NCBI GenBank assembly: GCA_016699105.1
Contig: CP064960.1
Coordinates: 328,727 to 392,726, forward strand
Length of the DNA: 64,000 bases
Direction: 5' to 3'
From: a bacterium
Lineage (GTDB): Bacteria > Patescibacteriota > Saccharimonadia > UBA4664
Positions within the stretch are counted from its first letter, which is position 1. The number at the start of each line of letters is the position of its first letter. The notes below the pieces were generated by a model that did no database searches, was not told where the DNA came from, and saw nothing but the letters and a program-made list of their open reading frames with translations. Positions 34,623-54,838 of the stretch are shown in pieces. A program made the position numbers and the translations under genes.

Positions 34623-34712
34623 GGAGAGGTCGCATAGTGGCCGAGTGCGCTCGCTTGGAAAGCGGGTATGGGGGCAACTCCATCGAGGGTTCGAATCCCT
34701 CCCTCTCCGCCA
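34623..34712 (+). tRNA. tRNA-Ser (anticodon GGA)
   Basis: Acceptor GGAGAGG/CCTCTCC, discriminator G, genomically encoded CCA, anticodon loop TTGGAAA, long variable arm (class II), T-arm GAGGGTTCGAATCCCTC. Confidence 0.85.
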
Positions 34713-44492: not shown

Positions 44493-45194
44493 CTTGGGCG
44501 ATCTGGGGACTTTCGATGATTGTGCCCATGGCTTCATGCCCAAATGAGATGAACGCGACTTTGTCACCGTAAATATCGATTTCGACAGGCGCTTGATAAT
44601 CTTGTGGCTCGTACCAGGTACGGTTGAGCAGATGTTGTGCATCAATATTTGGGTCACGATTCGCATCTGGTATACGGGGAGTAAGAGCTTCGACGGTAAT
44701 GTTGAGTTTGGTTCGTTTGGCGATGTACTGACTCATGAACTGCGAACCCAGAAAGTCATTTTCAGCCGGTGTACGCATCAGGCTAATAGGTTGGCGGGTA
44801 CGCAGCATATCCTCGTATATCTGGATCAAGCCGGTTTTACCCTGATAGAAGCGGACACCAGGTTGCTCGAAAACGTATAAAAATAGGTCATGAGTTGGGG
44901 CATGAAGTTGCGCAGTCGGGTTTCGTGCTCAATTACCTGATTGCGACGGGATTCCATGAGCTTTTCCAGATTGGCAGGGTTTTCAGGGCGATAGGTCAAT
45001 TTGGAGCCAGTGCCGGATTTGACGGCGAGCGTGAGCTCTTCCAGTTGTTTAAGGACTTCATAAGCGTTGGTGCGAGTAATCTGGATCTTATCTGATAATT
45101 GTGGTGGTGTGAGGGTGCCGTTTGAGATTAGCGCCAGATAGGCGCGGGCTTGGGTTGTGTTGAGGCCGATTTGTTCGAGAAGTGAAGCGTCCAT
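44308..45194 (-). CDS. TrmB-family transcriptional regulator (HTH plus C-terminal sugar-binding-like domain), apparent frameshift near 44828
   Basis: N-terminal winged-helix 'LNTTQARAYLALISNGTLTPPQLSDKIQITRTNAYEVLKQL' and a TrmB-like C-terminal domain in the adjacent ORF. Confidence 0.55.
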
Positions 45195-46055
45195 AGGTGT
45201 AAGTTAGCACAAGCGGGATAAATTGTCAATGAGAAATTGACAGAAAATGGTTTGTTTTTATATCTGTTAGAATGTAATACGCGAGTGACTAATTGACATA
45301 TTAAAGTCCTTGTGGTAAAGTGTGTTCATTCGATGAGGCAGACATAAAATACCTACTCTCGAAAGTCAAGCTAACAATTACATACGTACACATTTGGTAA
45401 GACACGTTCTAGGGTCAGAAGCTCGAAAACGGTCCAAATATAGGTTGAGCCCTTGGGTGTTCCCTGTATCTGGATCGCGAGCGTGTCTTTCTATCGTTTT
45501 AAGGGCAGTTTTAGGACCTTTAAAACCACTAATTGAGATGATCTAGAACTCGGTTAGTACCCGCGAAGGTGCATCTAGTAACGGGTAACAGACGATTAAT
45601 GGACTATTCCTTGGTCCGTCGCACCAAGTACGCGCTTTGTAGCGAGATATCCGCGTGATGATCAGAAGGCATCATGAATGCAGGTTGGCGAAACTATTTG
45701 TTCGCCCGTCACGCGCTATCTCTCTGGAAAGAGAGAAATTTAAAAATCGATCACAAATTTTTGAGCGGAAGCTGCCTCTCGTAATCAATAGTCCCACGCC
45801 AACATGAATACCTGCGCGATCGGATGTACTAGAAGGAATACGGGAGACAGGTTCCACTGAAGGAACCAGTATTTGGGCGAAAGTCCAAAAAAGTACCTTT
45901 TGAAAAGTTGTTTGAATATGGTCGCTGGTCGGCGTTGCGGAAACGTATACGATGGTGTTTTCCCAAGGGGTATCGATGAGAATCGACGCTCGCTGGGGAG
46001 ACGCCAACGGGGCGGATCCAACAATGGGGCAGATGTGCTCCGGAAGGAGGTGGTC

Positions 46056-46463
46056 TTCGTGATCACCCAGACGACCGAGACCACGACCCCGACCGCCCCG
46101 GTGACAGGGCGGCTGGTTCCGCGGCCGCCCGCGGGCCGCAAGGGGGTCGTCAACCCCCGGACCCACGCGGCCACCCGCGAGGCGGCGCTGCTGGACCAAC
46201 TGGCGGCCGAGCTGACCGCCCACCAGGCGGAGGCCGCCGAGGCGGCGACCCGGCAGGGTTTGATCCTGCCACCCGTCGGCCGGGTCATTGACCCGGCCAC
46301 CCTCCGCGAGGAGGGTCTGCCCGAGATCGTGGGGCAGACCCGGACGGTGCAGTCGGCACGGCCTGCGACGCCGCGGCGTCAACCGATGATGCCCCGTAAC
46401 GGGGGGCGTCGCTACAATGGCCCGCTTACGCGGGCCGAGCTGGCGGCAAGGGTCGCCAGCTGA
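46056..46463 (+). CDS. Thr/Pro/Arg-rich hypothetical protein in the high-GC island
   Basis: GGAAGGAGG then GTG start. ~135 aa at ~70% GC. Confidence 0.4.
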   Translation, partial: FVITQTTETTTPTAPVTGRLVPRPPAGRKGVVNPRTHAATREAALLDQLAAELTAHQAEAAEAATRQGLILPPVGRVIDPATLREEGLPEIVGQTRTVQSARPATPRRQPMMPRNGGRRYNGPLTRAELAARVAS

Positions 46464-46764
46464 CAACCAGCCGCAGGTGAGGCAGCTGCGGGATATAAAT
46501 TCCTGCCTCAACGTTCGAGCCGGGTTGACGGCTATGAGCGGGCCAGCGCGAAAGCGCCCGACCGCATCACCATGGGTTGTTTTGACCCAGATCGTTTGAA
46601 CATTTTGTTCACAAGTTCGTTTGTGCCCGCCGAGAGCTTTTCTCGGTAGTACCACAAGGAAATCGTTTCGCGACTTTTTTCGAAAATCGCTGAACGATGT
46701 GGTGCGCCACACTTGTACATTTTTGTACGAATCGGGGAGGTCGGCCAACCGGCCGCTACCTCCC

Positions 46765-46819
46765 CCTGACTTCCGTGGATGCGTATCTGCGTTGATGAGT
46801 CCGAAAGGACGAAAAGTCA
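46765..46819 (+). ncRNA. type-III hammerhead ribozyme motif, copy 1 (C3U variant)
   Basis: Helix III CUGACU/AGUCAG, cleavage triplet UUC, helix I hairpin CGUGGAU-GCGU-AUCUGCG, core 'UUGAUGA' (U at position 3 instead of C), helix II GUCC-GAAA-GGAC, then GAAA. Confidence 0.5.
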
Positions 46820-46934
46820 GACCAGTACTTTGATTAGTGATAGATGTTCCGGACTGGATATTTGTTATTGAGATACACCGATGACAGGTATCCGGTCCGG
46901 GAAGCGCCCAGACCACAAATCCCCTGGAGGGGTC

Positions 46935-47174
46935 ATGCTTTGGAAGACCACGTATCAGGAATCACCGTATGAGAGTACGGGACAGTATGGAGTGTATGTT
47001 TGGCACCGGTTTTTCGGCCGGTGCCAAACAGGATGGCAGGTGGTGCCAATCGCCTGCCATCCTGATGGCGAAAAAAGAATGGATGCCTTTTTGGCTTTCA
47101 TTCGCCAACCGCGGCGGTTCGCCGCGGTGGAAAGGAGGGCAAAAGAGTTGGGCTTCAGACTTGACAAGGTCTAA
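46935..47174 (+). CDS. small hypothetical protein (79 aa) after conserved leader
   Basis: 'CCCCUGGAGGGGUCAUGC' leader/RBS conserved downstream of all three hammerheads. Confidence 0.35.
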   Translation: MLWKTTYQESPYESTGQYGVYVWHRFFGRCQTGWQVVPIACHPDGEKRMDAFLAFIRQPRRFAAVERRAKELGFRLDKV

Positions 47175-47224
47175 CTCTGGCCGCTGATCTGTCGGCTTCA
47201 GGTCAAACGCTGCGCCGAGGGGTG

Positions 47225-47420
47225 TTCAAATCCTCGGAAGTACCAAAGGAACTCAGGTTTAGAACCCGAGTGGTGCGAGACGGGTAACCGGGAGCAACCC
47301 ATAATATGCTCCCCACTCAACCCGAGTGTTTCATATCTTCTGCGTTCCTACCGCCGATTACCGCGTAATCGGCGGGTGAGAGGGGTGATGAAACACTCAG
47401 GCTGGGTGAAAGCTCAGAAA
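47225..47420 (+). repeat. repeat B copy 1 (diverged)
   Basis: Shares 'GCTCCCCAC..AACCCGAG...TTCA.A.CTTCTGC.TTC', 'GTGAGAGGGGT' and 'TCAGGCTGGG' with copies at ~50072 and ~52217. Contains an 11-bp perfect hairpin CCGCCGATTAC-CGC-GTAATCGGCGG (47352-47376). Confidence 0.5.
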
Positions 47421-47496
47421 TGTACCTTCAGTACTAAGTTCACGCGGATGGTCCGCGTGGTGCGTACATGCGCATGGATCACCCTTAGGAGGTGAA

Positions 47497-48423
47497 ATGA
47501 CTGCGTATATGGCATTGGATCCTCGTCCGGCGGCTCGACAGACAATGCTCGAGCTTCTCTCCACCCCGACCTTTGGGGTGGAGGTGACGGTGCCCGAGCT
47601 GGGGTCGGCGTGCCTTCTGGGCAATGCTGACCCCCAGCACACCGGGGGGCGGGCAGATATGTCAGCCATCGAGGGCCTTGCCGCGTTGTTTCGCGGTGAG
47701 GCACAGGTAGCCACCGTGCTGCCTGACCTCGATAGCCTTGGTTCCATGGCGGTGCTGGACATCGCCATGGACGCCATTGCCCAGCTCGGTGCGTTGGCAG
47801 GAGAGATCCTGCGGCGCATCGAGCTAATCGGCCGTGCTGATCGCTTCGAGAGAGGCGAATGGCCCGGTCGGCGACCCCTGCCGACCCTCGACCAGCCGTG
47901 GTCGGACGTGCTTTCGGGCGCGTCAGACACACGCGAGCTTGCGGCCATGGGGGCCGTTGTCGCGGACCACCGGCTGCCGGTGGAGGAGCGGGTGCGTTTG
48001 CTGCGCATCTGGCTCTCCACCGGCGAGGAGCCGTTGGAGTATCGCCAGCGAGTTGAGGCTGAACGGGCCGAGATGCTGGCTGCCCTGACGGGTGGCGAGA
48101 TCTTGGTTCGCGAGGCTGCCAAGGGCCATATCGCCACGGTGGTTTCAACCCACCGGGCTGGCATGGCCATTGGCTACCACCGGGCTCCGGTGGTAGTGGC
48201 GCAGAACCCGGCTTTTAGTTTTAAGGGTTCGGCGCCGGTCGTTAAGTTCACGATAGCCCAGTTCAGAGTGGGTTACGTGGATCTGTCGGCCGCTCTGACT
48301 GAGCTGGCCGGACGTGAGCCCGGCTGGGGCGGATCGCCAACGATTGGCGGCTCACCCCAGGGGGTCTCGTCGGGCTTGTCGCTCGACGAGGTTGTAGCGG
48401 TCGTGGAGGCTCATCTCCTCTGA
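47497..48423 (+). CDS. hypothetical protein (308 aa) in the high-GC island
   Basis: AGGAGGTGA RBS with 8-nt spacing; no recognisable domain. Confidence 0.5.
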   Translation: MTAYMALDPRPAARQTMLELLSTPTFGVEVTVPELGSACLLGNADPQHTGGRADMSAIEGLAALFRGEAQVATVLPDLDSLGSMAVLDIAMDAIAQLGALAGEILRRIELIGRADRFERGEWPGRRPLPTLDQPWSDVLSGASDTRELAAMGAVVADHRLPVEERVRLLRIWLSTGEEPLEYRQRVEAERAEMLAALTGGEILVREAAKGHIATVVSTHRAGMAIGYHRAPVVVAQNPAFSFKGSAPVVKFTIAQFRVGYVDLSAALTELAGREPGWGGSPTIGGSPQGVSSGLSLDEVVAVVEAHLL

Positions 48424-48456
48424 CTGCGCCCATTCGAATCGAGCCTTCGGAAGGAG

Positions 48457-48648
48457 GTGAAAGAAATGAGAGGGCCACTGTTCGTGATCGCCCTGGGGGC
48501 CGCTATGGCGACCTTCGGGTGGTGGGTAGAAAGGAAGCATCAGGCGGCGGTGGGGCCGGTTGATCCGGCTTGCGCTCTGATGCTCCTGGGAGGGGTTATA
48601 GCTTTTCTTGGCGCTGCTGCCTTTGGGGCAGCGGTCGTCAGTGGGTGA
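48457..48648 (+). CDS. small two-TM membrane protein (63 aa)
   Basis: AGGAGGTGA RBS; two hydrophobic helices. Confidence 0.4.
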   Translation: MKEMRGPLFVIALGAAMATFGWWVERKHQAAVGPVDPACALMLLGGVIAFLGAAAFGAAVVSG

Positions 48649-48733
48649 GCACTGCCTTCCAACCCCAACTGCACCGGCAGTCATCCGGGACAAGGCGCTC
48701 AAAAGGAAATTGGCCAACAGTGCCAATGCGCGC

Positions 48734-48890
48734 CAGGGAGCGACTCCTCAAGACGCTGAACCACGGTTAATACCCGTTGGTCACTGTCATCGCGACAACA
48801 ACAGGTTTGCCGGTTTCCTCCGCAAGGAAATAACCGGTGCAACTCGGCGGATGTGTATCCGCCCTGACGAGTCCGAAAGGACGAAAGTTG
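48734..48890 (+). ncRNA. ~157-nt structured repeat A, copy 2, ending in a canonical type-III hammerhead ribozyme (48839-48890)
   Basis: Helix III GCAAC/GUUG(G), cleavage after CUC (C48845), helix I GGCGGAU-GUGU-AUCCGCC, core CUGACGA, helix II GUCC-GAAA-GGAC, GAAA. Upstream ~100 nt is near-identical to copy 3. Confidence 0.65.
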
Positions 48891-49028
48891 GCTGTTCTTT
48901 AAAGAGATTCCTCGATATTCGGTTGGTTCTGAGAGTAATTGCCAGGTCGGATATTCGCTATTGCGTGGAGCGATGGCAGATATCCGGTCTGGGGGAATAG
49001 CTCAGGCTACGAGATCCTTGGAGGGGTC

Positions 49029-49493
49029 ATGCGAGTTTTTCGAGAGTTCCGTGTTCGTGCCGGAAGCACGTTAGAGACGGATGGGGTGCGATTCGACGCC
49101 CCTGGACCTTGGGGATGGAGCACCCAGATCCCGTATCCGCGCGGTGGACGTGCCGCGGGTGTGGGGTTAGTGGAAAGTCCAAGTACTTTCCACGGCGAGA
49201 GCCTTGGTTGGCTGTGCAGCGAGAAATCGCTGCGTCTCGGTGCAAGATTTGCACCGAGCTTGACCACAACCCAGCCTTTACCAGGCTGGAAGGATCGGCT
49301 GGCCGAGCTGAGGGGGCTCGAGCAGACAATGCTGGACGCTCTGGTAGCGCTGCTCAGCTGCGAACGGCCCGTAGACCTGCGGGTTGAGTCCCTTGAGCGG
49401 GCGGGGCTGCTCGTGGTGGGGGCGGTATCGTGCTCACGAAGCACGAGCCGGATATCGCCCGACGATTGGGCCTACTGTTCCGTAAGGAGGTAA
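49029..49493 (+). CDS. hypothetical protein (155 aa) after conserved leader
   Basis: The 'CCUUGGAGGGGUCAUGC' leader is the only support. Length is uncertain given assembly indels. Confidence 0.35.
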   Translation: MRVFREFRVRAGSTLETDGVRFDAPGPWGWSTQIPYPRGGRAAGVGLVESPSTFHGESLGWLCSEKSLRLGARFAPSLTTTQPLPGWKDRLAELRGLEQTMLDALVALLSCERPVDLRVESLERAGLLVVGAVSCSRSTSRISPDDWAYCSVRR

Positions 49494-49795
49494 TTGAAGT
49501 TGTCTCCTGCGTCGAGGAGCACGCAATCGGGGGGTACCTCAAGGTCCTCTGCCGAAGGTCGCGGGCCCAGGGGTGCCCTCATACGGTTGGTCTGTTTACT
49601 CAGACGGACCAGAGGGGGCTTACTCCCTCCTCGGTAAGGAGGATTACTTCCCAGGAGCAATCAGGAGCTGGGACAGTCTCCTGAAGCAGTTTGCTCAAAT
49701 CGTGGAGGGCCGCGCATCCGCAGCGACGACATCTGTCGGCTGAGGCGCGAACTCAACGAGCCTTTGAAAGGAGGTGGAACGAATCGGTCCACCAA

Positions 49796-50229
49796 TGCTG
49801 TTTCTTGGCACGGTGATGGCTGTGCGGGCTGTCTGGGCTCTATGTAGTGGAAGCTACAAGGGTAAGCCAGCCCGGCGGGGATCGCCAATATGGTATCCAT
49901 TGTGGTTTGCGCTTGCCGCAAGCGTGAGCGTTGCCGTGATGGGGCCATATTTATCGGCTCCGAATGATTCGGGCCCACCGTCAGACGGCTTCTGGCAAAA
50001 CCCGCCCTCTGATCGCGGATCGAAAAGATCAGAACTGCCACATAAGGACTTCGCGAACGCGGAGGTGGCGCAAAACGTATTTACGGTAAAGGGGAGTCGC
50101 CTAAGAGCTCCCCACCCAACCCGAGGGCTTCACACCTTCTGCATTCCGACAACTCATTTGAGCAATCGGAGGGTGGTCGGAGTGGTGGAGCTCTCAGGCT
50201 GGGCGCCAATCAGGTTCCCAGTAGTTTGA
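49796..50229 (+). CDS. small hydrophobic hypothetical protein (extent uncertain)
   Basis: GAAAGGAGGTGG RBS. The N-terminal two-TM segment resembles the 48457 ORF. The 3' part may be out of frame. Confidence 0.3.
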
Positions 50230-50250
50230 AACACCCGTGAGAGGGGTAAG
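50072..50250 (+). repeat. repeat B copy 2
   Basis: 'GGTGGCGCAAAACGTATTTACGGTAAAGGGGAGTCGCCTAAGAGCTCCCCACCCAACCCGAGGGCTTCACACCTTCTGCATTCCGAC...' shows ~90% identity over ~85 nt to copy 3. Includes the GGGGAG-N11-CTCCCC hairpin. Confidence 0.55.
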
Positions 50251-50252
50251 CG

Positions 50253-50537
50253 ATGAACGTCGTCTTCGGTACCGTGAAATTCGTCAACGCCGAACGAGGG
50301 TTTGGCTTCGTCCGTCTCGATGGGGGCGCCGGAGATGTCCACTTCTGGCTCGATCGCGGATTTACCTCCGCAGTGGGCTGGCGGGCGGACCCAATGGGTG
50401 CCATGCGAAGCGGTGAAAACTTTGGTCGGCTGGAAATCGTTCGACCGGCGACACCAAAGCCTGGCGAACGTCTGGCCCTGAGTATTATCTGCCGGAACCG
50501 CACAGACTCGCCGCGGTCAGACCCAAGCGAAAGCTAA
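50253..50537 (+). CDS. cold-shock-domain-like small protein (degenerate CSD)
   Basis: 'GTVKFVNAERGFGFV' resembles the CspA RNP1 motif 'GTVKWFNAEKGFGFI'. The rest diverges. Confidence 0.4.
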   Translation: MNVVFGTVKFVNAERGFGFVRLDGGAGDVHFWLDRGFTSAVGWRADPMGAMRSGENFGRLEIVRPATPKPGERLALSIICRNRTDSPRSDPSES

Positions 50538-50563
50538 GGGCCCGACTGCCGAGTGGTGGGCGT

Positions 50564-51322
50564 TTGAAGTGCCCTGGAAGGCGGCGCAGGCCGAAATCGA
50601 AGCCCGAAAAGAGCAGTACCCGGTTGGTCTGTATTACTGGCCGATCGAGTATGGAGACGGACGCGCTGCACGTGTCATACCGGTGCCCAGGGAGCACGAA
50701 ACGTATACGAGCCACTACGATTACGGCCGTGTACCTGCTCACTGGGCGGTGGTGGAGCGTGCAGGGAGTTACCGCACGAGTCGTTTGCCCGTGGGATGGT
50801 TCCGGCGGATTGGGACACTTATTTGTCGCCGGGCTTGCTCGAGCGTTTCTCGATTGTTCGGGGCGAGCTGAGTATGTGGCTGCCCTGCGATCCGAACTGA
50901 CTGACCTAGAGGATCGTGTTGTGGTTGCCGAGCGCGCGTCGGGTCCGAAGAGGGCGAAGCCAAAATTGCGGCTGGATGGCGTCGGAAACGGCGAGATCCA
51001 CTACATGGGGGTAAGCCTTCAAGTGACAGGTTTTCGTATCACAACGGGCAAGAAGGAAGGCTTCAGTTGGCCTGGCGACCCTGACGACCCAGAGTACACC
51101 GAGGTCACCTATAGCATCGAGCTGGGTGGCCATGAAGTCTCGGCCCTACCAGGTCCGGTGGTGGTGTTGGCGAGAGCCGCCGAGAAGAAGGAAGACGTGC
51201 GTGATAGCTGGGATATCTTGATATCTGAGCTCAGCCGGGGAGTACAACACGACCTTAGCTGGATGAGAAAGCGAGTTGTTGCGATTCACGCCGAGATCGA
51301 ACGCCAGGAGGCCTCAGAGTAG
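50564..51322 (+). CDS. hypothetical protein (frame ambiguous; alternative ORF 50569-50871)
   Basis: Two overlapping long ORFs in different frames. High GC makes ORF calls unreliable. Confidence 0.3.
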   Translation: MKCPGRRRRPKSKPEKSSTRLVCITGRSSMETDALHVSYRCPGSTKRIRATTITAVYLLTGRWWSVQGVTARVVCPWDGSGGLGHLFVAGLARAFLDCSGRAEYVAALRSELTDLEDRVVVAERASGPKRAKPKLRLDGVGNGEIHYMGVSLQVTGFRITTGKKEGFSWPGDPDDPEYTEVTYSIELGGHEVSALPGPVVVLARAAEKKEDVRDSWDILISELSRGVQHDLSWMRKRVVAIHAEIERQEASE

Positions 51323-51370
51323 GAATTCTGGGACAAAACGCGCATAAGGACCAGCTCGTGAGCTGGGCGT

Positions 51371-51528
51371 CAGGGGAGCGACTCCTCAAGACGTTGAACC
51401 ACGGTTAATACCCGTTGGTCACTGTCATCGTGACAACCAAAGGTTTGCCGGTTTCCGCCGCAAGGAAATAACCGGTGCAACTCGGCGGATGTGTATCCGC
51501 CCTGACGAGTCCGAAAGGACGAAAGTTG
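51371..51528 (+). ncRNA. ~158-nt structured repeat A, copy 3, ending in a canonical type-III hammerhead ribozyme (51477-51528)
   Basis: Hammerhead core identical to copy 2. 8 substitutions over ~157 nt between the copies. Confidence 0.65.
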
Positions 51529-51577
51529 TCAGCCAGTTGGTCCGGGAAACGCCCAGACCACGAGGCCCTGGAGGGTC

Positions 51578-51811
51578 ATGCTGCAGCTGGTTTCGATTCA
51601 TTGGGGTCCGCTCGACGAGCCCCACGAGGACGTCATCATTCACGATGGAGTCCCGGCGCGGCGACTTGCCGTGCCGAACTACTACGATGAAGGGCAGACG
51701 GTCGAGGAGTCGATCTTCTGCCCGAGCACAAGGTGGGCAGCAAGTTACATCGCTGCCCTCGTGGCGCGGGGCTATCCCGGCCGGAGCCACATGGCACGGA
51801 TCTTGAGATGA
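51578..51811 (+). CDS. small hypothetical protein (77 aa) after conserved leader
   Basis: The 'CCCUGGAGGGUCAUGC' leader is the only support. Confidence 0.35.
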   Translation: MLQLVSIHWGPLDEPHEDVIIHDGVPARRLAVPNYYDEGQTVEESIFCPSTRWAASYIAALVARGYPGRSHMARILR

Positions 51812-51912
51812 GGGCGTTTGGCCGCGCGCTGCCGAATTCTGACCGAGCGTCCCCAGTTAGGATAACTGCCAAACTCCTGATCTCGCAATTCGATTTTAAG
51901 GAGGGATGGGAA

Positions 51913-52044
51913 ATGTTTCTGACTGGACAGCCTGATGACTGTGGCTGCCCGGTTAGAGCAGGAGGTAGTCTCGGCCAGGATGAGCGAAACTGGAGCTTCG
52001 AGTGCCATCTTTGCGGAGCAAGTGGTGTCGCGTACGGGTTTTAG
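51913..52044 (+). CDS. Cys-rich small protein (43 aa, CxC...CxxC zinc-ribbon-like)
   Basis: AAGGAGGGA RBS 6 nt upstream; 'DCGCPV...ECHLCG'. Confidence 0.35.
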   Translation: MFLTGQPDDCGCPVRAGGSLGQDERNWSFECHLCGASGVAYGF

Positions 52045-52216
52045 ATATCCGTATGACGCCCAGGCTTTTCTGGAGACCCATCCCGAGGCTCAGCGAATGT
52101 AGTAGAGCTGGCCGCACCAGGAATCCGGCTGCACTACCTCCCGGAGGTGCAGTACCAGACCAATACGCCGGAAAGCGTTGAATTTTCCGGAAGTGCCAAA
52201 GGAACCCGTCAAGGAA

Positions 52217-52360
52217 TGGGTGGCGCAAAATCGTTCTACGGTAAAGGGAGTCGCCTAAGAGCTCCCACCTAACCCGAAGGCTTCATACCTTCTGCATTCT
52301 GACTGCTTTATGAAATATCAGCGAGCAGTTGGAGTGATGGAGCCTTCAGGTTTGGTTGAC
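52217..52360 (+). repeat. repeat B copy 3 at right edge of the high-GC island
   Basis: Near-identical to copy 2 over ~85 nt. GC drops to host level immediately downstream. Confidence 0.55.
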
Positions 52361-52435
52361 CAAAATCAGATTGATTGTTCGCAGCCAAAATTGATACTAT
52401 TGGCGAACTTGTAACTACGACAATATCTACTTAAG

Positions 52436-53875
52436 TTGCCAGACGGCGCCGAGGAGCCTACCATAGAACTAGACGTTTGCGGGGGTATTTTGGCCGATTT
52501 GACCGAAAAATGTGGCGTTTTTGGCGCTGTTACTGAGCATAGTTATACCGCTCGGGTGACGTATTATGGGCTGTGGGCACTGCAGCACCGCGGCCAAGAG
52601 GGCAGTGGTATCGCTAGTTGGGATGGCCAGCGCATGCACTCTCGTGTGGGCGCGGGACTGGTGGCGCACGTGTATGATCCAGGAGATCTCGAGCGGCTTG
52701 ATGGGTGCATAGCTATTGGCCACAATCGATATTCGACATCTGGTGCCGATGGCGGGGCACATGCTCAGCCGGTAATTGACCGAGATTTAGATCTGGCTTT
52801 CGCACATAATGGTAATTTGCCTTCTACTAAGGCGCTGGAAGCGTTTTTGCGCAAACACCATATCAATCCACGCCCATTGAATGATTCCGAAATGATGACA
52901 CGGGCAATTGGTGTGTATTTGCGTGACGGGATGAGTCTTGAAGATGCAGTTGTGGCGGCATGGCCGTTGTTTACTGGCGCTTTTTCGTGCGTGGTCATGC
53001 AAGAAGGTCATTTGGTGGCATTTCGAGATGAGTGCGGGATTCGGCCATTGGCTCTGGGAAAACTTGAGGATGGTTACTGTGTATCGAGTGAATCGTGTGC
53101 CTTTGATACAGTGGGCGCCGCTTTTTGCGCGAAGTGAAGCCTGGAGAACTTTGTCAGTCTGACGGCTGAAAAGTGACGGCACGCCAAGTGGTGACGGCTC
53201 GACCCAAATTGGATGTGTTTGAGTTGGTCTATTTTGCCCGCCCTGATAGTTTGATCGCTGGCCGCAAAGTTAATGAAGTCCGGCGGGAAATGGGCAGACA
53301 GTTGGCTCGAGAATTTCCAGTTGTCGCTGATGTTGTCATACCAGTGCCCGATTCGGGGATTCCGATGGCCCTAGGATACAGTGAGCAGAGTGGGGTGCGA
53401 TTTGATCATGGTTTTATCAAAAACCGCTATATTCACCGGACGTTTATTAAAGCCGACACAAGTAATGCGGAGCGGGATGTGCGAGTAAAGCTCAATCCCG
53501 TGCCGGAAGTAGTCATGGGTAAAAGCGTGGTGGTAATCGATGATTCCATAGTGCGAGGAACCACAACCGGGCAAATCGTTGGCATGCTGTATGGAGCCGG
53601 TGCTCAGTGTTCATGTTCTGGTGAGTTCGCCGCCGGTTTTGTACCCAGACTTTTATGGAATCAACACGCCGAGCCAGACAGAATTGATAGCCGCCAATCG
53701 CAGCGTTGAAGAAATTCGGGAGCATATCGGTGCGGATAGCTTGGGCTACCTGTCGGTGACTGGTATGGTAAAAGCAACCGGATTGGCACGTCAAAAGTTG
53801 AACCTGTCGTGTTTACTGGTGAATATCCGATTGATATCGGTGAGCGGGCGCTCACTATTCAAAAAGTTTTACTAG
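52436..53875 (+). CDS. purF: amidophosphoribosyltransferase PurF, at least three apparent frameshifts
   Basis: 'CGVFGAV' N-terminal nucleophile region, 'IGHNRYSTSG', PRTase motif 'VVVIDDSIVRGTT'. Four collinear ORF pieces; start uncertain. Confidence 0.8.
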
Positions 53876-53940
53876 ACAAGAAGCCGGTACTCGTCTAGAA
53901 TGGCTCGTTACGCTATGATAGACAAAGGAAATTTATAGAT

Positions 53941-54838
53941 ATGAAATTACGACAAATCATTGGAATCGCAGTCATCATTTTAATGGCTGCGGGAGGCGTG
54001 GCCTTGGTGCGGTCGCAGCCAGCGGGTGCACCAGAAAATAGATTGAAGGTAGCGGCCAGCTATTATCCGTTTTATGAAGTTGCCGCTAGAGTAGGCGGCG
54101 ATCATGTGGTCGTATCCAACCTAACGCCTGCAGGAGCGGAACCCATGATTTCGAACCATCAGCCCAAGATCTAGCTGGGGCTCAAGATTCGGCGGTTTTT
54201 GTATATAATGGTGTCGGCTTTGAACCATGGGTAGAAGGATTCGTTCGTGATTACAAAGGTGCTGCCGTTAAGGGTAGTGACAAGATAGAGCTGCGGACTT
54301 CGGCTGAGGGCGTGGTTGATCCTCACTATTGGCTCGATCCGGTCTTGATGCAGCAGGTAGTTGATACGGTCAGAGAAGCTTTGGCCAAGGCCGATCCCGC
54401 CAACGCTGGTTACTACCAGACAAAAGCAGATGAGTATAAGGGCAGTTGGACGATCTCGATAATCGTATGGGTTTGAGCTTGGCACGCTGTCAAACCAGCG
54501 TTATTGTGACAAATCATGCGGCATTCAATTATTTGGCGTACCGCTATGGGTTAACGAGTCAGGCAATTACCGGCTTATCGCCAGAAGCCGAGGCTAGTCC
54601 AGAGCAGCTGGCAGCACTATCGACGCTCGTAAAAGAACAAGGCATCAAATATGTCTTTATGGAAAAATTAGCATCACCCAAATTGGCTGAAACATTAGCT
54701 CAAGAAGCAGGAGTTCAAGTAGGTGTGCTTGATCCCATTGAAGGCTTAACGACTGCGGATATAGCCGCCGGAAAGGATTACTCGAGTGTCCAAAAAGAAA
54801 ATTTGGCAGCCCTCCAACGAGCCCTTACATGCCGGTAA
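53941..54838 (+). CDS. znuA: metal (Zn/Mn) ABC transporter substrate-binding protein, TroA/ZnuA family, apparent frameshifts
   Basis: Signal peptide, 'VAASYYPFYEVA', then '...HDFEPSAQDLAGA...VVDPHYWLDP' in shifted frames. Confidence 0.7.

Follow-up and report, generated by a model that had tools for sequence, protein, structure and literature searches.

Clusters of hammerhead ribozymes that flank variable genes have been described in prophage-like regions, where the polycistronic RNA is cleaved (Perreault et al., 2011; PMC3088659). Constructs of about 2 kb carrying such clusters were cleaved in vitro at every ribozyme, and a triple cluster from Agrobacterium was also cleaved in E. coli (PMC3088659). 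These clusters are the closest known situation to the locus described here, which lies in a stretch of 64,000 nucleotides (nt) of a Saccharimonadia chromosome (contig CP064960.1, positions 328,727 to 392,726; hereafter the window) and contains repeat A, a tract of about 105 nt that directly precedes two type III hammerheads. As in the known clusters, several hammerheads on one strand (three here, all of type III) separate single genes or short blocks of variable identity. Unlike them, the locus is an island in the chromosome of a member of the candidate phyla radiation (CPR) and not an obvious prophage, and two of its three ribozymes carry a near-identical upstream tract of 105 nt, which was not reported for the earlier clusters. 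The locus is a Saccharimonadia variant of the clustered hammerheads with a species-specific, homogenised upstream tract. With moderate confidence, repeat A is read here as the upstream part, in the 3′ untranslated region (3′-UTR), of a duplicated, paralogous intergenic "ribozyme linker" whose copies were homogenised by recent copying.

The PolA of the host is 100% identical to a protein from a metagenome-assembled genome, and its next named matches, at 65-71% identity, are labelled Saccharimonadia. The island (45.9-52.35 kb) has a GC content of 60% in a genome of 50% GC and is bordered by a gene for a TrmB-like regulator on one side and by purF on the other. It consists of three similar units, each with one or more upstream genes, a hammerhead linker, a leader (a hairpin, a ribosome-binding site and an ATG) with one or more downstream genes, and a hairpin element of about 140 nt (D3). 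In units 2 and 3 the upstream portion of the linker is repeat A, whose two direct copies are at 48734-48838 and 51371-51476 and are each fused to a hammerhead (hammerhead 2 at 48839-48892 and hammerhead 3 at 51477-51530). Coordinates refer to the window, and the linker, ribozyme and D3 features located here and below are on its + strand.

A near-identical pair of elements upstream of hammerheads 2 and 3 had been predicted from the window alone, and it was borne out by alignment (155 nt at 97% identity, 48736-48890 against 51374-51528), by blastn with repeat A and the hammerhead together (165 nt at 95.2% identity with one gap, 48727-48890 against 51364-51528) and by a covariance model of repeat A, which gave only two matches in the 64-kb window (130.5 bits for copy 1 and 134.6 bits for copy 2). 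The identity is as tight as had been claimed; the count of eight substitutions over about 157 nt is to be replaced by a total of six or seven differences, namely five substitutions within repeat A (48756 C/T, 48793 C/T, 48800 A/C, 48802 C/A and 48819 T/G), a 1-nt indel in a G-run of repeat A and one more difference at 48891. Contrary to the same prediction, the copies do not start right after the preceding stop codons (48648 and 51322): the distance from the stop to the high-identity tract is 86 nt in copy 1 and 49 nt in copy 2. Weaker homology (about 75%) extends 5′ to 48686 and 51326, that is, 38 and 4 nt past the stops. This extension spans 48686-48733 in copy 1, with a box UCCGGGACAAGGCGCUCAAAAGGA followed by hairpin H0 (48709-48727, AUUGGC-CAACAGU-GCCAAU), and 51326-51370 in copy 2, with hairpin H0′ (51351-51366, CCAGCU-CGUG-AGCUGG). 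The 5′ identity fades gradually, and the 3′ end of the identity block coincides exactly with the 3′ end of the ribozyme. The flanking open reading frames (ORFs) are unrelated, as had been stated. Repeat A is not an assembly artefact, because two independent assemblies (L147 and L149) carry it; Logan contigs end about 20 nt into the tract, as expected for a repeat longer than k.

Contigs with the same island from other samples were obtained by exact look-up of an ORF of 60 amino acids (aa) and a homolog of a 252-aa ORF; the two ORFs downstream of the ribozymes had no exact protein match, probably on account of frameshifts in the window. The window and L147 are 94.3% identical overall and strongly mosaic: identity is 100% in the hammerheads and in the 269 nt before copy 1 of repeat A, 89.6% in the leader that follows hammerhead 2 (leader 2) and 71% in the downstream gene. 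Copy 1 itself is 94.3% identical, with six substitutions and one indel within 105 nt, and its flanks have no substitution in 269 nt upstream and 54 nt downstream. Five of these seven differences match the state of the other copy. At 48800, 48802 and 48819 there are two haplotypes, X (AAC..U) and Y (CAA..G), and either can be found at either site: the first and second sites carry X and Y in the window, and Y and X in L147 and L149. X is found at the first site of L148 and L151, in which copy 2 is absent; among the other single-copy contigs, the partial L152 has X at this site, and L153, L156 and L157 have Y. Elsewhere in cassettes 2 and 3 the paralogous parts reach only 74-87% identity. Sequence has thus passed from one copy to the other after these strains separated. 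The near-identity of the two copies is due to recent gene conversion or homologous recombination and not to long-term constraint, because the haplotypes swap sites, the differences cluster between identical flanks and the spacer at the corresponding position of a syntenic locus (L143, below) is unrelated. Recent conversion also accounts for the identity of hammerheads 2 and 3 even in stems and loops that are free to vary; hammerhead 2 is 100% identical both to hammerhead 3 and to its L147 ortholog. As a separate observation, L148 and L151 carry an unrelated segment of 543 nt (L148 6407-6949) in place of window 50889-52268, which in the window holds the C-terminal part of a 358-aa gene, the second repeat A linker, hammerhead 3 and a 175-aa gene; this swap of a variable C-terminus together with the downstream gene as one block is reminiscent of polymorphic toxin/immunity loci.

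Within the collections searched, repeat A is confined to strains of one Saccharimonadia species. A cmscan of 48640-48900 at E≤10 returned Hammerhead_3 alone (48838-48892) and nothing over 48734-48838, and a scan of the window at the Rfam gathering threshold returned only a tRNA at 34623. No match was found in phage and plasmid collections, nor, with two exact patterns, in viral contigs; JGI metagenome contigs scanned with one 20-mer (GGTTAATACCCGTTGGTCAC) gave a single chance match on an unrelated 1-kb contig. When repeat A and D3 were compared by blastn with 118 hammerhead loci of GTDB genomes, only chance matches of 16-22 nt were obtained, and a covariance model (R1) used together with blastn on about 1.1 Mb of hammerhead loci recovered the strain copies only, the next best match (15.5 bits, E 0.4) not being beside a ribozyme. 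In the syntenic locus L143, where the neighbouring 308-aa protein is 72% identical, the order is the gene, a small membrane ORF, a spacer of about 250 nt ending in a long hairpin, and a hammerhead; that spacer could not be aligned to repeat A. In a related species (L158, a 72-kb contig whose PolA is 81% identical) the same slot holds different genes, with no hammerhead and no repeat A. No credible homology emerged when repeat A was aligned with the regions that precede the hammerheads of L143, of a further relative (L144) and of cassette 1; a common 9-mer (CAAGACGCU) was judged unprovable. Repeat A is real and non-coding, and is a member of no described RNA family.

The adjacent ribozymes were examined against the hammerhead core (C3-U4-G5-A6-N7-G8-A9 ... 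G12-A13-A14, with A15.1 paired to U16.1 and any base but G at the cleavage site, H17). Both copies have CUGACGAG ... CGAAA, with U-C before the predicted cut, and the topology of type III, with a stem I of 7 bp, a stem II of 4 bp closed by a GAAA loop and an open-ended stem III (CAAC/GUUG). Hammerheads 2 and 3 are predicted to self-cleave after C48845 and C51483, sites which are 2,638 nt apart. In a scan of 24 kb they matched RF00008 at 48838-48892 (40.5 bits, E 9e-6) and 51476-51530 (43.3 bits, E 1.5e-6), and the E-value of hammerhead 2 was 9.8e-8 in a 261-nt scan. Both score under the Rfam gathering threshold of 48.5 bits because stem III is short and the stem II loop is shorter; the core nucleotides are all canonical. 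Leader 2 (48893-49028) ends in a hairpin and CCUUGGAGGGGUCAUG, which holds the ribosome-binding site and start codon, and is paralogous to 46823-46934 and 51531-51577 (repeat families D4 and D5). The cassette-1 linker (46734-46822; repeat family D2) is without repeat A and consists of a hairpin (GGGGAGG...CCUCCCC, 46734-46765) directly followed by hammerhead 1 (46766-46822), which is 84% identical to hammerheads 2 and 3 (84-87% in the comparison with hammerhead 2), has U3 in place of C3 and would be cleaved after C46773. Hammerhead 1 carries UUGAUGAG, with U3.G8 instead of C3-G8; it is missed by Rfam at E≤1 and is 100% conserved in L147.

Two hairpins that had been proposed in repeat A, GGAG-CGA-CUCC and CCGGUU...AACCGG, are present, arranged side by side and not nested as first described. 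In copy 1 (48734-48838) they belong to a series made up of H1 (48737-48749), H2 (48754-48790), an H3 region and the terminal hairpin H4 (48809-48838), which has an outer stem GCCGGUU/AACCGGU, an inner stem UCC/GGA and a GCAA loop. A third proposed pairing (GUCAC...GYGAC) forms a perfect 5-bp helix in copy 2 only; copy 1 has an A.C mismatch there and its minimum free energy (MFE) fold pairs these bases otherwise. H4 ends 1 nt 5′ of hammerhead stem III and is followed by GCAACUC. Against dinucleotide shuffles, the first 75 nt (H1-H3) gave z-scores of -0.5 and -1.1 and the whole 105 nt -1.5 and -1.6; H4, which alone stood out, gave -13.7 kcal/mol (z -3.6) in copy 1 and -12.5 kcal/mol (z -2.5) in copy 2 (51447-51476), where U51457G weakens the inner stem. 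The outer stem of H4 is unchanged in all strain copies. Over five distinct copies of repeat A and two candidate structures (26-29 pairs) there was no compensatory change, a count with low power at 94-99% identity. Five pairs vary, at 48745 (H1), 48778 (H2), 48783 and 48793 (H2/H3) and 48819 (inner H4), and all are broken by the change. A tRNA-like reading was considered for a 7-nt loop, UUAAUAC, that resembles an anticodon loop, and was rejected in view of the missing T-arm and of no match to the tRNA model.

The step from tight conservation to a functional RNA, taken in the original prediction, therefore does not hold, given a range of one species, no covariation, a first 75 nt that folds no better than shuffled sequence and the exchange between the two copies that the strain comparison shows. 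What had been put forward as the opposite outcome, namely that the element is simply the 3′-UTR of a duplicated gene and lacks structural covariation, comes close to what was found: the segment is 3′-UTR-like and no structural covariation was seen, but the upstream genes are not duplicated.

A hairpin placed directly before a hammerhead is not peculiar to this island. GTDB representative genomes scanned with a pattern for ribozyme stem II and core gave at least 118 loci, nearly all in Patescibacteria metagenome-assembled genomes. Among the loci listed, a perfect hairpin of at least 6 bp ending no more than 5 nt from stem III precedes 47 of 120 hammerheads (39%), against a background of perfect stems at 3.3% of positions on the same strands (p about 1e-37). 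Paralogous and orthologous examples retain the hairpin with altered stems, and in phage contigs the same ribozyme comes after hairpins or the 3′ ends of tRNAs. H4 of repeat A fits this general architecture. Full-text searches of the literature found no paper linking hammerheads to CPR bacteria. Type III hammerheads of this kind are very abundant in metagenome-assembled genomes of Patescibacteria/Saccharibacteria. The surveyed loci (L020-L137) have stem II UCC-GAAA-GGA and stem I loop GAUGUGUAUC, and often two or three ribozymes spaced 0.7-2.7 kb apart. The same stem I loop and stem II are also found in three records of a viral collection (L008, L009 and L019; 322-457 nt), taken from their size to be viroid or satellite RNAs. 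In L020-L137 a motif GTTCTTT(G/A)A lies 5-40 nt past many of the ribozymes (20% with the strict pattern, against about 1% in the background), and 8-mers containing GTTCTTT are by far the commonest downstream words; hammerhead 2 has a motif of this type downstream (GTTCTTTAAAG, 48895-48905). In L144, two type III hammerheads (346-400 and 2477-2531) with the same stem III (UCCGUC...GAAACGGA) flank a 2.1-kb GC-rich islet, with a 310-aa homolog and a 157-aa ORF, in AT-rich DNA beside ppdK; the first of these hammerheads has C for U4.

The linker as read here has the order: short conserved box and hairpin, repeat A spacer ending in H4, type III hammerhead, and leader (hairpin, ribosome-binding site, ATG). 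One such linker splits each of the three two-gene cassettes of the strain-variable GC-rich island (about 45.9-52.35 kb). The island would be transcribed from left to right as a single polycistron. In a consensus scan the sole sigma-70-like site was at 45293-45321, upstream of the island, with none within the island nor inside repeat A, and a scan of 45000-53000 for intrinsic terminators gave no site at 48809-48845 or 51447-51483, where H4 is followed by GCAACUC and no U-run; a promoter upstream only and no terminator at the linkers fit a polycistronic transcript. Each hammerhead would then cut the transcript, and repeat A would become the 3′ end of the upstream mRNA, consisting of H4 and GCAACUC with a 2′,3′-cyclic phosphate. 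H4 may shield this fragment from 3′ exonucleases, insulate the folding of the ribozyme from upstream sequence, or both. The downstream fragment would begin with a 5′-OH inside the folded ribozyme, followed by the conserved leader and ribosome-binding site. The first 75 nt or so of repeat A (H1-H3) have most likely just been carried along in the converted tract, and whatever use repeat A has probably comes only from the terminal hairpin and from being joined to the ribozyme. The earlier suggestion of a processing or stability element is, in this weaker form, plausible for the terminal hairpin plus ribozyme.

Several points weigh against this reading. The window sequence has probable indel errors, and the phasing of repeats can err in short-read assemblies, yet several independent assemblies agree. 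An energy-based test of upstream structure at the surveyed hammerheads was no better than for control windows 80-200 nt further upstream, so the claim of an upstream hairpin rests on the perfect-stem test. Eleven other multi-hammerhead CPR loci share just 20-40 nt upstream of the core, and a 105-nt tract is unusual among them. H0 is replaced in the other copy by a different 6-bp hairpin at the same position, which is a hint that structure is under selection across the wider linker. By nearest-neighbour MFE, a fold that sequesters the 5′ strand of stem III is preferred by 3-4 kcal/mol, and on this model repeat A could modulate the ribozyme and be other than a passive tail. Finally, cleavage in vivo, polycistronic transcription and end protection are steps that we infer.

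There is a second explanation, unlikely in our estimate, by which repeat A is a functional RNA domain that gates the hammerhead by alternative pairing, or is a protein-binding or small-RNA module released by cleavage. The gating pairs would be GGUU (48804-48807) with AACU (48841-48844), and a decoy CAAC (48796-48799) with the 3′ strand of stem III; in copy 2 the decoy helix (UGACAAC/GUUGUCA) reaches 7 bp. This alternative pairing is the MFE fold of both copies, the active hammerhead fold being less stable by 3.0 kcal/mol (copy 1) or 4.3-5.3 kcal/mol (copy 2). Such an advantage is not exceptional, however, since among the scanned hammerheads the difference in folding energy is -3 kcal/mol or lower in 22% and -5 kcal/mol or lower in 8%; a regulated ribozyme is kept as no more than a rival because the value falls within the upper fifth of ordinary CPR hammerheads. 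Retention of the H0 hairpin with a different sequence in the two copies would agree with a functional domain, and so would the stretches of 36 nt and about 70 nt that are invariant in almost all copies, but this invariance is accounted for by recent conversion. Zero covariation, the disruptive nature of every change at a paired position, an H1-H3 region no more stable than its shuffles, the lack of homologs outside one species and the unrelated syntenic spacer of L143 all argue against it.

The strain data bear on a third explanation, to which we give equally little credence, in which repeat A and the hammerhead form a portable homology block at the DNA level, used for exchange of cassette halves, excision or acquisition, and conserved for the sake of recombination. 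Haplotypes have switched between the two sites in different strains, some strains are without copy 2, hammerhead 3 and the downstream gene, and the identity block stops exactly at the ribozyme 3′ end. The haplotype at the first site is moreover linked to the allele of the downstream gene (classes of 71% and 98% identity), which places a strain-level breakpoint in or next to repeat A. Any repeat of 160 nt is nevertheless a substrate for RecA-type recombination, whether or not it has that purpose. Terminal inverted repeats, target duplications and a sharp 5′ boundary are all lacking, and no recombinase gene was found among the scanned ORFs of the island and its neighbourhood. The breakpoints of the replacement in L148 lie in the upstream ORF (50889) and at the D3 hairpin (52268), not in repeat A, and a site-specific role would suit the D3 hairpins better. 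The term recombination site, as it had been applied to repeat A, can be kept only in the sense of a substrate for homologous recombination.

A broader arrangement, also improbable as a whole, would place in the slot upstream of purF an integron-like array that lacks a neighbouring integrase, in which the cassettes are closed by D3 and the repeat A-hammerhead-leader linker is a portable joint. As part of the same low estimate, the joint would cut the cassette halves apart as RNA and, as DNA, supply homology for swapping or adding a downstream gene. D3 elements close each cassette (47270-47410, 50064-50203 and 52219-52350 in the window; also 5760-5895 in L158). Their layout is a small hairpin, a RYYYAAC box (ACTCAAC, ACCCAAC or ACCTAAC) and an imperfect hairpin of about 90 nt with an invariant one-sided bulge (ACCUUCUG). 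The D3 fold has a z-score of -4.4, and 11 pairs show compensatory changes among three copies. The last copy marks the border between the island and purF, a 90%-identical D3 hairpin in the related species L158 closes a wholly different cassette in the same slot, and strain homology in L148/L149 picks up again exactly at CTAAC|CCGAAGG. Rfam has no entry for D3, which could serve as an attC-like site of recombination or as a processing hairpin of the RNase III type. When D3 was examined for attC boxes, RYYYAAC was found in three of three copies, and the R′ side (GCTGGGT, GCTGGGC and GTTTGGT) had one mismatch each to GTTRRRY. No attC boxes are present at the ends of repeat A, where the sequence was read directly, and no domain of an integron integrase or recombinase was found in the ORFs of 42.1-53.7 kb with Pfam, PHROGs and NCBIfam. 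The two-gene, ribozyme-split cassettes, closed by a covarying D3 hairpin and varying by strain and by species, are the main interest of the locus; if the arrangement were true, an integron-like, ribozyme-punctuated modular cassette system would be one not described before.

It is very improbable that repeat A is a conserved C-terminal coding end or a small ORF common to two genes: one frame is open through both copies (ORF 48608-49000) and another ends ...ERLLKTLNHG* in both with one synonymous difference, but in copy 2 the open frame lacks a start codon, three of the five changes in this frame are non-synonymous, the LKTLNHG* frame is not shared upstream, where the copies are frame-shifted relative to the DNA alignment, gene callers placed no gene at repeat A on the strain contigs, and of the three frames checked none was conserved, with substitutions not biased to synonymous sites.

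With regard to the neighbouring genes, island proteins gave no match in Pfam, PHROGs or NCBIfam, bar a weak cold-shock-like N-terminus. The 308-aa protein (47497-48423, +) is one of a large family of CPR proteins in which no Pfam domain is recognised. Its AlphaFold model (predicted local distance difference test score, pLDDT, 90.7) most resembles RecJ/RecJ2, PAP phosphatase and the C-terminal domain of AlaRS (Foldseek E 7.5e-4, TM 0.33), and the fold is, by this predicted model, that of a DHH/DHHA1 phosphoesterase, with invariant residues in DxD, D, H and GGSPQG-type motifs. Elsewhere, the family is found beside hammerheads (L120, L143 and L144) or beside RadC and a type IV coupling protein (L139). 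The genes at 49029-49745, 50253-51322, 51578-52105 and 52436-53950 are frameshifted in the window and intact in the strain contigs (238, 358, 175 and 488 aa, the last being purF). An alignment of 8.6 kb between the window and L147 has 47 gapped columns (43 gap openings by blastn). Because of the intact strain genes and these many gapped columns, the frameshifts suggest that a long-read assembly has indel errors in homopolymers, rather than that the genes are pseudogenes. A segment of about 109 nt at 45761-45868 is 80% identical between species (L158 2456-2564) and ends in a hairpin (GGUUCC-ACUGAA-GGAACC); it adjoins the left edge of the variable cassettes in both species and could be an array entry site or a promoter region.

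The locus carries a caution, in that identity within a genome does not amount to selection: the strain contigs reveal concerted evolution of a ribozyme linker on the time scale of strain divergence. It also provides a concrete case of a type III hammerhead with a hairpin directly in front of it, and the survey puts a figure on this pairing in genomes which, with few exceptions, belong to the CPR. This suggests that the very abundant CPR hammerheads set the ends of mRNAs and guard them in small genomes that have few RNases. The island is a tractable place for asking what hammerheads do in bacteria, a question standing since 2011.

Further systems were compared with the locus. Integron cassettes are alike in that unrelated, promoterless-looking cassettes occupy one slot that varies by strain or species, each closed by an imperfect hairpin (here D3). 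Unlike attC, repeat A lies inside the cassettes and is without R/L box structure, and no integrase is present among the scanned ORFs; D3 itself differs in having an 8-nt one-sided bulge instead of the attC spacer geometry. With retrozymes and viroid-like repeats the locus shares direct repeats with type III hammerheads, and its transcripts could be cut to units of 2,638 nt; the 2.1-kb GC-rich islet of the relative L144, bounded by two hammerheads with the same stem III, is a further likeness. Unlike retrozymes, the units here are protein-coding, DNA-encoded and chromosomal, the island reaches past the outer ribozymes, and there is no sign of circular RNA or reverse transcription. In RiboJ, a hammerhead from a satellite RNA is joined to an adjacent hairpin and standardises the ends of neighbouring mRNA segments. 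Repeat A with its ribozyme resembles it as a hammerhead of the self-cleaving type beside a stable hairpin, and differs in that the RiboJ hairpin is downstream and serves the downstream gene, whereas H4 precedes the ribozyme and would be left at the 3′ end of the upstream fragment. The intergenic hairpins known as repetitive extragenic palindromic (REP) sequences and bacterial interspersed mosaic elements (BIMEs), and the RNase III sites of phage T7, punctuate operon mRNAs by stabilising 3′ ends. Repeat A is like these in being a repeated, non-coding, homogenised intergenic hairpin element with a proposed role in 3′-end protection, and unlike them in having two copies in 64 kb, an end that would be made by a ribozyme instead of a nuclease or terminator, and no sequence similarity. 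By analogy, repeat A would work most like the 3′-end-stabilising hairpin repeats or like a natural ribozyme insulator.

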